From assembly GCA_040753555.1 (NCBI GenBank), contig JBFMDZ010000001.1, forward strand, positions 12,693 through 76,692: 64,000 nt of DNA, in the 5' to 3' direction. A program made the translations under genes and the position numbers. The DNA comes from a bacterium. GTDB lineage: Bacteria > UBA9089 > UBA9088. This document shows, piece by piece, positions 55,851 to 57,085 of this stretch (position 1 is the stretch's first letter; each line of letters begins with the position of its first letter). Below the pieces are notes generated by a model. That model saw only the letters and a list, made by a program, of their open reading frames with translations, did not search any database and had not been told where the DNA came from.

Positions 55851-55861
55851 ATGAAAAATGT

Positions 55862-55890
55862 TTGACAAAGGGAGGAGATTTTAGATAATA
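55862..55890 (+). promoter_or_regulatory. Sigma70-type promoter for hicBA.
   Basis: TTGACA, 17-nt spacer, ATAATA. Confidence 0.35.
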
Positions 55891-55989
55891 TTAAGAATGA
55901 AAATTTACCTTAATATGGAAGGTGGGGTATGAAAAAGAGGTTTGTATTAATCCTGAGCCTTGTTTTATTTACAAGGCTGTGGAAAAAAT

Positions 55990-56236
55990 GAAGACCATTC
56001 TATTTCCAATAATAATTGAGTGTTTAGAAGAAGGAGGGTATTATGCCCAATGTCCCATCTTTCAAGGATGCCATGTGGAAGGAGAGACTTATTCAGAGGC
56101 AATAGAGAATATTCAAGATGCAATAAAGATATTCATTGACTCTTATAAAGATTTAGGTAAAGACATACCATCGCTTTCAGTCTATGAGGGAAATATAGTG
56201 GTTACTTCAGGTATTCCCATATTACAGGAAGTATGA
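55990..56236 (+). CDS. hicB: HicB-family antitoxin (UPF0150).
   Basis: MKTILFPIIIECLEEGGYYAQCPIFQGCHVEGETYSEAIENIQDAI. Confidence 0.6.
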
Positions 56237-56470
56237 ATGAGCGAGAGATTTCCGGCAGTAACCGATAAAGATGTTATCAAGGTTCTTTGCAAGATTGGAT
56301 TTGAGTTCTATAGAACAGCAAAAGGTAGTCATGAGGTATGGCGGAGAAAAAGCGATATGAGACATACCATTGTTCCAAGACATAGGGGGAAAATAATAAA
56401 AAGAAGAACCCTAAAAAGCATATTAGGTGATACTGGATTGTCAAAAGAAGAATTTAGAGAACTAATTTAG
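56237..56470 (+). CDS. hicA: HicA-family toxin (mRNA interferase, YcfA-like).
   Basis: KVLCKIGFEFYRTAKGSHEVWRR...TIVPRHRGKIIKRRTLKSILGDTGL. Confidence 0.7.
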   Translation: MSERFPAVTDKDVIKVLCKIGFEFYRTAKGSHEVWRRKSDMRHTIVPRHRGKIIKRRTLKSILGDTGLSKEEFRELI

Positions 56471-57085
56471 ACCCATCTCCTTACTGATGTTATCTGCTCC
56501 TCAAAGAAAGCAATCATTACATTGCATTGGCTGCTCAAGGAGATGGATGAAAGATACAAGAAGACATTTGCAAAGGAGGGTGTTAGAGATGTAGATGGAT
56601 ACCATATTATTGCAACACAAAGACCATCTGTTGATATTATAACAGGGCTTATTAAGGCAAATTTTCCATCCCGTATTGCATTTCAGGTATTCTCCCGAGT
56701 TGATTCAAGAACAATCCTTGATATGATGGGAGCTGAAAAGCTTTTAGGAAGGGGTGATATGCTATTCTTTCCAGCAGGTTCCCCAAAGCCAATGAGGCTA
56801 CAGGGTGCTTATATCTCCCTTCCTGAGATAGAGAAAATTGTTGATTTTATTAAGAGTCAAGGCATTTCCCTTGAGAAGAAAGAGATAAGGGAGGAAGAAA
56901 TAAAAGAAACCGTTGACGAAGATGAGGAAATAGACGATTCTCTTTATGAACAAGCCATTTCTATAGTAGAGTCTGATAAACATAATAACATTATAACAAG
57001 ACCAAAGATGTTTGTCAGAATTATTTTTATCTCCCATACATTCTCCATACACTACAAGGAAGAAATTGGGGGAATTAAAAAATAA
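56471..57085 (+). pseudogene. Duplicated, internally deleted ftsK 3' fragment.
   Basis: Collinear with ftsK about 55077-55710 at roughly 90% identity. A ~130-bp internal deletion removes the Walker B region. The C-terminus is unrelated. Confidence 0.75.

Follow-up and report, generated by a model that had tools for sequence, protein, structure and literature searches.

A hicBA toxin-antitoxin cassette behind an intact ftsK, bracketed by diverged direct copies of part of that gene

In Escherichia coli, phage 21 and the element e14 integrate in the 3' part of icd and supply a replacement end for that gene. Insertion with long target duplication (ILTD) has been described for restriction-modification (RM) gene complexes (Nobusato et al., 2000, Gene 259:99; Furuta et al., 2010), which are flanked by repeats of 46-423 bp, contain no other mobile genes and, as has been proposed, insert, are amplified by way of the repeats, are released and reinvade in a cycle (PMC2853133). 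For toxin-antitoxin (TA) islets of Photorhabdus that are free of mobile elements, homologous recombination at the core genes on either side has been put forward as the route of spread (PMC13617665), and TA pairs of the HicAB or HicBA type are exemplified by E. coli HicAB, S. pneumoniae HicBA and Y. pestis HicA3B3 (PMC11594946). In the literature searched, the co-occurrences of ILTD and toxin-antitoxin that were examined lie in reference lists only. The subject of the present analysis is a hicBA cassette that lies behind ftsK in a stretch of 64,000 nucleotides (nt), hereafter the window, from contig JBFMDZ010000001.1 of a bacterium of the UBA9089 lineage.

The ftsK gene (53847-55850, plus strand) encodes 667 amino acids (aa) with the Pfam domains FtsK_4TM, FtsK_alpha, FtsK_SpoIIIE and FtsK_gamma, is 88% identical in aa sequence to FtsK of two other metagenome-assembled genomes (MAGs) and remains whole in spite of the insertion behind it. 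Codons 410-621 of this gene (55075-55707, plus strand, 633 nt) form the first copy of a direct repeat, the second copy of which, referred to below as ftsK', occupies 56472-56972 on the plus strand (501 nt) and corresponds to codons 410-453 plus 499-621. Overall, the two copies are identical at 457 of 496 positions (92%), with 84-85% identity between 56472-56606 and 55075-55206 and 95% identity between 56605-56972 and 55340-55707 (BLAST E = 1e-165); they differ in length by an in-frame deletion of 135 nt from ftsK' (ftsK 55207-55341, exactly 45 codons) and by one extra AAG codon. Repeat finding, pairwise alignment and self-BLAST all agreed on this arrangement. A sequence-only reading of the same DNA had described a repeat of about 90% identity with an internal deletion of about 130 bp after hicA, long direct repeats around the cassette and a difference of AGAPKP versus AGSPKP between the copies, all of which were found. 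The DNA between the copies measures 621 nt from the end of ftsK (55851-56471), or 764 nt when counted from 55708, and carries both genes of the cassette intact. These findings probably reflect a hicBA cassette without mobility genes of its own that was inserted with long target duplication and passed between related lineages through homologous recombination, with a dead piece of ftsK left behind.

The first gene of the cassette, hicB (55988-56236, plus strand), encodes a short form of the antitoxin (82 aa) that matched PF15919 (HicB_lk_antitox) with E = 3e-8 and 34.2 bits (cut-off 27) over profile positions 1-59 of 123, and that aligned with residues 3-58 of solved HicB proteins of 138-148 aa. 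Homologues support the ATG at 55988 as the start of this protein rather than the GTG at 55922, and orthologues that are also 82 aa long are present at four other loci (L025, L026, L027 and L030). A C-terminal DNA-binding domain is absent from HicB of the window, which consists of the N-terminal HicB domain alone; autoregulation is therefore unlikely and the regulation expected of such a pair is altered. Short forms of HicB exist, and the missing domain does not exclude membership of the HicBA family. The second gene, hicA (56237-56470, plus strand), abuts the hicB stop codon and encodes 77 aa that matched PF07927 (HicA_toxin, a domain with a dsRBD-like fold) with E = 6e-17 over profile positions 2-58 of 58 and PDB entry 1whz with E = 4e-7; its G30-S31-H32 motif (Gly-Ser-His), which contains the conserved catalytic His, is invariant in 24 relatives. 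By domain content, as the sequence-only reading had also proposed, the two genes are a true HicB/HicA pair of the type II toxin-antitoxin kind. Relatives of HicA at 88-65% identity were found in other uncultured bacteria, none among the viral contigs of IMG/VR and none among the plasmids of PLSDB. The GC content of the cassette (0.35-0.36, compared with 0.376 for the window) gave no foreign signal, and a search of Rfam over 55500-58000 returned nothing credible.

The leader between ftsK and hicB (55851-55987, plus strand, 137 nt) contains a sigma70-like promoter and a Shine-Dalgarno (SD) sequence. The promoter had earlier been described as TTGACA-17-ATAATA; the same site was found here as TTGACA at 55862-55867 and GATAAT at 55884-55889, separated by 16 nt (11/12 match), and is plausible as a promoter. 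The SD sequence, GGAAGGTGGGG at 55917-55927, is strong, and it precedes a stub open reading frame (ORF) of 20 codons (55929-55991, plus strand; MKKRFVLILSLVLFTRLWKK and stop) that resembles a signal peptide, as read from its sequence, and whose TGA stop codon overlaps the ATG of hicB (ATGA). The leader had no homologue among the fetched loci of relatives or elsewhere in the window, and a parent gene of the stub was sought and none found; in size and layout the stub matches the 5' stubs upstream of hicB at L025 (20+2 codons) and L027 (17+6 codons). It may thus be a fossil of the 5' end of some former host gene and now provide hicB with promoter, SD sequence and translational coupling, a role that would fit an antitoxin unable to autoregulate. 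Expression of hicBA in the window seems to depend on such captured host signals, with translational coupling to the stub, and read-through from ftsK would probably add to it.

Beyond hicA, ftsK' begins 1 nt past the TAG stop codon and in the reading frame of hicA. It starts downstream of the Walker A motif, its 135-nt deletion takes VVVIDELAD (Walker B), and it ends at the equivalent of 55707, without the last 143 nt of ftsK. Without either Walker motif and without the gamma domain, ftsK' is a dead copy, and the 187-aa ORF at 56522-57085 is best annotated as an ftsK pseudogene fragment, not as a second translocase. The deletion junction (56606/56607, plus strand) lies between two CCAT microhomologies; a microhomology origin of the junction between hicA and ftsK' (ATTTAGAGAACT versus ATTTAAAGAGCT) was also considered and was dropped because the offsets differ by 6 nt. 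A strong site on the minus strand that resembles a promoter and has an extended -10 element (57018 to 56990; CTGACA, 17 nt, TGTTATAAT) is directed antisense into ftsK' and hicA, and a transcript from this site would complement the real ftsK mRNA, with a perfect match of 88 nt.

It might be supposed from these features that ftsK' is functional, either as part of a HicA-FtsK' read-through fusion, as a truncated third component of the cassette or as a template for antisense RNA against ftsK mRNA. The remnant continues the hicA frame with only one TAG in between, its insertions and deletions are multiples of three, its frame is open for 204 codons, and both the minus-strand site and the 88-nt match are suited to an antisense role. 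Coincidences of frame of this kind are nevertheless expected by chance in about 1 of 9 cases, and the open frame is treated here as coincidence plus youth. Moreover, ftsK' has neither an SD sequence nor a conserved start and lacks the three functional parts named above, its low ratio of non-synonymous to synonymous divergence (dN/dS, see below) is explained by its past within a functional gene, and no piece of ftsK was present at any other hicBA locus. A function of ftsK' is thus highly improbable.

The origin of the two copies was examined by comparison with the orthologous segment of four relatives, namely L002 (from MAG236), L022 (FtsK 88% identical to that of the window), L023 (78%) and L024 (70%). 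A search with FtsK gave one close relative among genome contigs and none among metagenome contigs, and the closer relatives were obtained by protein search and contig look-ups. Copy-to-copy changes comprised 24 synonymous and 15 non-synonymous differences (dS = 0.265, dN/dS = 0.15), a pattern like that of orthologues, as dN/dS for orthologue pairs from different MAGs was 0.09-0.16 and dS between intact ftsK and L022 was 0.27. Neutral decay of one branch, for which about one third of changes would be expected to be synonymous, was rejected by the 24 of 39 observed (P = 2-3e-4). In addition, the first 78 nt or so of ftsK' differ at 1 position from the L002 allele and at about 12 from the resident copy, and the derived codons TCC TCA (Ser-Ser) are common to ftsK' and L002 whereas GAT/GAC TCA (Asp-Ser) is found in the resident copy, in L022 and in the outgroups L023 and L024. 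Taken together, the orthologue-like substitutions and the L002-like 5' block indicate an allelic type of divergence, and the copies are therefore alleles from different lineages, presumably joined by recombination, and not a fresh duplicate that decayed in place.

The latter possibility, a local tandem duplication of the ftsK 3' region, with hicBA arriving earlier or later and the spare copy then decaying neutrally, involves a common type of event and would accord with the deletions in ftsK' and with the middle block at 55342-55470, in which the copies are 98.4% identical and share an exact run of 88 nt. That block also suggests a crossover or conversion tract. A dN/dS of 0.15 at a dS of 0.27 is incompatible with neutral decay (P ~2e-4), tandem duplication does not account for a 5' block that is nearly identical to the allele of another MAG and has a derived state in common with it, and such a duplication would have repeated the leader and hicBA as well. 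An origin of ftsK' by duplication in place is thus very unlikely. Within the clade, ftsK is visibly mosaic, which implies that recombination between lineages is frequent: L022 and L002 are 97-100% identical in the 5' third of the gene and 74-90% in the middle, and the window (53847-55850) and L022 (7890-9881) are 66-79% identical in the 5' third and 94-99% over 54834-55200.

Support for the junctions came from Logan contig L001 (SRR29635778), an independent assembly that is 99.9% identical to the window over 55676-56639 and that reproduces the junctions between the end of ftsK and the leader, between leader and hicB and between hicA and ftsK', as well as the deletion junction within ftsK'. The earlier claim that the repeat is diverged and hence no trivial assembly duplicate stands. 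A less trivial artefact would be the stitching of two strain variants of ftsK, or of a chromosome and a 1265-bp circle that share the 88-nt block. The window comes from a metagenome bin, divergence between the copies is at a level between strain and species, an exact repeat of 88 nt might allow an assembler to switch paths, and L001 ends within the repeats at both sides. The junction between hicA and ftsK' and the deletion junction are, in contrast, unique sequences that cannot be attained by switching paths in a repeat, and both recur in the independent assembly. Furthermore, with its Walker B deleted, ftsK' cannot serve any strain as a functional allele, and the other path would leave the chromosomal ftsK without a gamma domain that is kept in all relatives. 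An artefact of assembly is accordingly a highly improbable account of the locus.

All four relatives carry a single ftsK without hicBA behind it (FtsK identities of 88, 88, 78 and 70% for L002, L022, L023 and L024, respectively), as seen in the comparison of downstream regions called for by the sequence-only reading, and homology between the window and these loci ends at the ftsK stop codon. In L023 and L024, the gene order aroE-serS-corA-ftsK is as in the window and is followed directly by pmbA/tldD, no trace of which was found anywhere in the window, while other genes follow ftsK in L002 and L022; the right-hand flank of the window is common to none of the four. The upstream synteny of aroE, serS and corA is absent from L022. 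In the window, the neighbours are flgE-like, flgD, aroE, serS and corA before ftsK and rnhB, rplS, trmD, a KH protein gene, rpsP, rpe and genes for a phosphatase, a GNAT and a deaminase after the cassette. The annotated genes from 45.5 to 62 kb (about 6-10 kb around the cassette) are all housekeeping genes, and none of them encodes an integrase, a transposase or another recombinase.

These results bear on the earlier proposal of an element that integrates into the 3' end of a gene and brings a replacement copy. In its fullest form, the locus would be the relic of a site-specific integrative element of the prophage or integrative and conjugative element type, which entered the 3' part of ftsK, carried a replacement end and later lost everything except hicBA. 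Direct repeats of the target gene do bracket the insert, the gene is reconstituted, the copies differ mainly by synonymous changes as in the known pattern of icd and phage 21, and elements of this sort often carry TA pairs at their ends. No integrase or recombinase was found among the neighbouring annotated genes, however, the insert is shorter than 0.8 kb, a 633-nt attachment region would be unusually long, and the displaced copy lacks its native 3' end and does not run into native flanking DNA. The genes at which the cassette is found are, moreover, unrelated, it lies at their 5' ends, the repeats differ and cassette ends are not conserved. A relic of this type is thus unlikely. That one copy came from outside is supported by dN/dS and by the derived, L002-like 5' block, and the gene was kept intact, so the earlier interpretation is right in spirit; the absence of a recombinase, the missing 3' end of the displaced copy and the variety of targets indicate that the kind of element was wrong.

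Homologous cassettes were found at a GAF-domain gene, a sensor-kinase gene, hdrA and other sites, and the target is thus not constant. Homology among cassettes is limited to the two ORFs, with window positions 55985-56471 being 90% identical to L025 and 83% identical to L026. In L025, which is from the same MAG as L022 and whose HicA is 88% identical to that of the window, the pair lies in front of the GAF-domain gene and is flanked by a direct repeat of 60 nt (100% identity) that is made up of the first 20 codons of this gene. Corresponding repeats were a 53-nt repeat (87%) in L027, which comprises the first 17 codons of a PocR sensor kinase, and a 115-nt repeat (97%) in L030 and its variants L031-L033. 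The L030 repeat was tried as the 3' end of a gene, which was rejected when translation showed a stop codon just upstream. Distances from the end of the first repeat to the start of hicB and from the hicA stop codon to the second repeat were, respectively, 75 and 10 nt in L025, 68 and 24 nt in L027, 49 and 69 nt in L030 and 280 and 1 nt in the window. The spacers between repeat and cassette are unrelated from locus to locus, no conserved cassette ends are evident, and in all repeat-flanked cases the host gene is intact and the stub lies on the opposite side of the cassette. Repeats of at least 30 nt were absent from a 10.7-kb control locus (L022), and only two were found in the 64-kb window outside paralogues, miniature inverted-repeat transposable elements (MITEs) and a tandem array at the start of the window.

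Two further arrangements were noted among the hicBA loci. L026 (positions 1-1331), from the same sequencing run as L001, carries a second copy of hicBA (83% nt identity) that lies 3 nt before the ATG of hdrA and is preceded by an HdrB/C-like gene and an ORF of 91 aa; this contig is short and shows no repeat around the pair. L038 contains a tandem array of three TA pairs (an unknown ORF with HicA, HicB with HicA, and DUF2281 with PIN) in front of a gene for a giant beta-helix protein, and the same junction of about 23 nt, an SD sequence plus ATG (TTCAGRGGAAAATTTTTATGA), follows each pair (675-695, 1418-1444 and 2531-2553), as if cassettes had been added successively at the same gene start.

The occurrence of the same cassette at different genes, at 5' ends and in flanking DNA, with repeats of 53-115 nt and no conserved cassette ends, argues against a site-specific element that targets ftsK, and favours insertion with long target duplication, after which the cassette would have spread by recombination and undergone secondary deletions. 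As defined for RM complexes by Furuta et al. (2010), ILTD entails features that were also found here, namely a complete module of less than 20 kb without other mobility genes, a flanking repeat longer than 30 bp and recurrence elsewhere. According to the favoured reading, a HicB/HicA cassette would have become wedged behind ftsK between direct copies of codons 410-621, of which the upstream copy reaches the normal stop codon and would thereby keep the essential gene intact, while the downstream copy would later have lost 135 nt (Walker B) and the last 143 nt of ftsK (gamma domain). Because the copies are alleles of different related lineages, the cassette and one ftsK copy would have entered, or been exchanged, by homologous recombination with DNA of a relative, for which the ftsK repeat may have served as homology arm. 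Transcription of hicB would start at the sigma70-like promoter, with the strong SD sequence and the coupled stub governing translation, and HicA would act as an mRNA-cleaving toxin checked by HicB, which would make the segment hard to lose.

Several observations weigh against this account. A simple target duplication or an insertion of the Campbell type predicts a second copy with the 3' end of ftsK, which is absent here, so that at least two secondary deletions have to be assumed, and even in the case of RM systems long target duplication still awaits a molecular explanation. An empty site that can be aligned on both sides was not found among the relatives, which share the ftsK side alone and each have different DNA beyond it. 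Either copy may be the incomer, as similarity to L002 and to L022 alternates in a mosaic manner along the whole gene. The junction between ftsK' and the downstream DNA (56972/56973) rests on the contig of the window alone, and the remnant ORF was not a called protein in a collection of 15 billion proteins, which left this junction without independent support. No long flanking repeat was present at hicBA loci L026, L028/29 and L034-37, and the repeat of L030 may be non-coding. Finally, the promoter match at 55862-55889 is statistically undistinctive, as 14 such matches were counted in this AT-rich region compared with 9.7 +/- 3.0 in shuffled sequences, which is not a significant enrichment.

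A more far-reaching reading, which is possible although rather doubtful, is that hicBA cassettes of this subfamily act as autonomous selfish units, which need no recombinase of their own to move and follow the life cycle that Kobayashi's group proposed for RM modules. Such a unit would insert at gene ends with long target duplication, pop out through the repeats as a small circle (here 1265 bp), re-enter related genomes by homologous recombination by means of the piece of host gene that it carries and collect fossils of earlier targets, such as the promoter and the 20-codon stub. If so, ftsK' would be an attachment handle, and TA pairs would be a second class of module, beside RM systems, with this mechanism of insertion. 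As regards the movement of bare TA pairs between chromosomal sites without transposase or integrase, the window and three related loci provide a structural signature, namely long duplications of host-gene ends that vary in length and whose copies are sometimes different alleles, which ties TA mobility to the ILTD of RM systems as well as to spread through homologous recombination. Because the signature recurs at four loci, the mobility of TA pairs can be tested directly, with concrete junctions (the circle and the empty site) to be sought in reads.

Other features of the window were noted in passing. Non-coding DNA that replaces the ftsK 3' end (56973-57272) contains, besides the minus-strand promoter-like site, a hairpin (GGGGGAATTAAAAAATAACCCCC) plus T-run at 57066-57099, and 56973-57742 had no homologue in the fetched loci or the rest of the window except for MITE ends. 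These ends belong to an element resembling a MITE or repetitive extragenic palindrome (REP) at 57273-57506, with terminal inverted repeats TGTAYGTGTTTAGCT, which is neighbouring mobile DNA outside the cassette. Elements of this kind, about 215-235 nt long with ends GTAYGTGTTTAGCT...AGCTAAACACRTAC and an AT-rich interior (AAATTGTAAATT), were also seen in the window at 19139-19351, 22116-22336 and 7295-7309, in L022 at about 2009-2025 and in L025 at 1414-1688; their end motif occurs 9 times in the window, compared with 0.21 expected, and also in a related MAG. At 15053-15140, the window has an 88-nt copy (90% identity) of 34629-34715, where the second hdrA begins (its first 9 codons and the region before them), in the same orientation and 19.5 kb upstream. 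This repeat is probably the hdrA case that the sequence-only reading had named, and it could represent long target duplication on either side of 19.5 kb of DNA that includes the first copy of hdrA and sets of paralogous genes. Gene remnants comparable to ftsK' seem to be scattered widely in this genome, among them, on the minus strand, the last 224 or so residues of a CobN/Mg-chelatase alone (15287-16021; profile positions 866-1089 of 1090) and, judged by eye from translations, a UvrA-like N-terminal fragment of 87 aa (11309-11572) and an endonuclease-V-like fragment of 99 aa (10294-10593). Positions 1-486 are a tandem array of units of about 99 nt with 83-89% identity.

With phage 21 and e14, the locus has in common an intact target, a partial copy displaced to the far side of the insert and mostly synonymous differences between copies. 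Those elements, in contrast, are kilobases long and have an integrase and a defined att core, whereas the insert described here is about 0.6 kb, has no recombinase, varies in target from locus to locus and has a displaced copy without the gene end. In comparison with known HicAB and HicBA systems, the pair has the Gly-Ser-His motif of HicA, the N-terminal domain of HicB, adjacent coupled genes and a patchy, horizontally mobile distribution, but differs in an 82-aa HicB without the C-terminal DNA-binding domain (ribbon-helix-helix or helix-turn-helix) of solved HicB proteins and in having the antitoxin gene first. Resemblance to the ILTD of RM complexes lies in a small addiction-type pair without transposase or integrase, in direct repeats of variable length (46-423 bp in the former, 53-633 nt here) that are single-copy sequence in relatives, and in insertion that often touches gene ends. 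Unlike the RM cases, the cargo is a type II HicBA pair, the alleles that form the repeat copies have diverged strongly, the second of them has been shortened secondarily and a two-sided empty site is not available. With the Photorhabdus islets, the locus shares a bare TA pair between core genes that is absent from close relatives, with homology of flanking core genes as the likely route of transfer; the model for those islets is a double crossover without duplication, whereas here a long duplication of a core gene stays. Thus, the locus fits both ILTD and the recombination proposed for TA islets, with the addition of two secondary deletions in the spare copy of ftsK.

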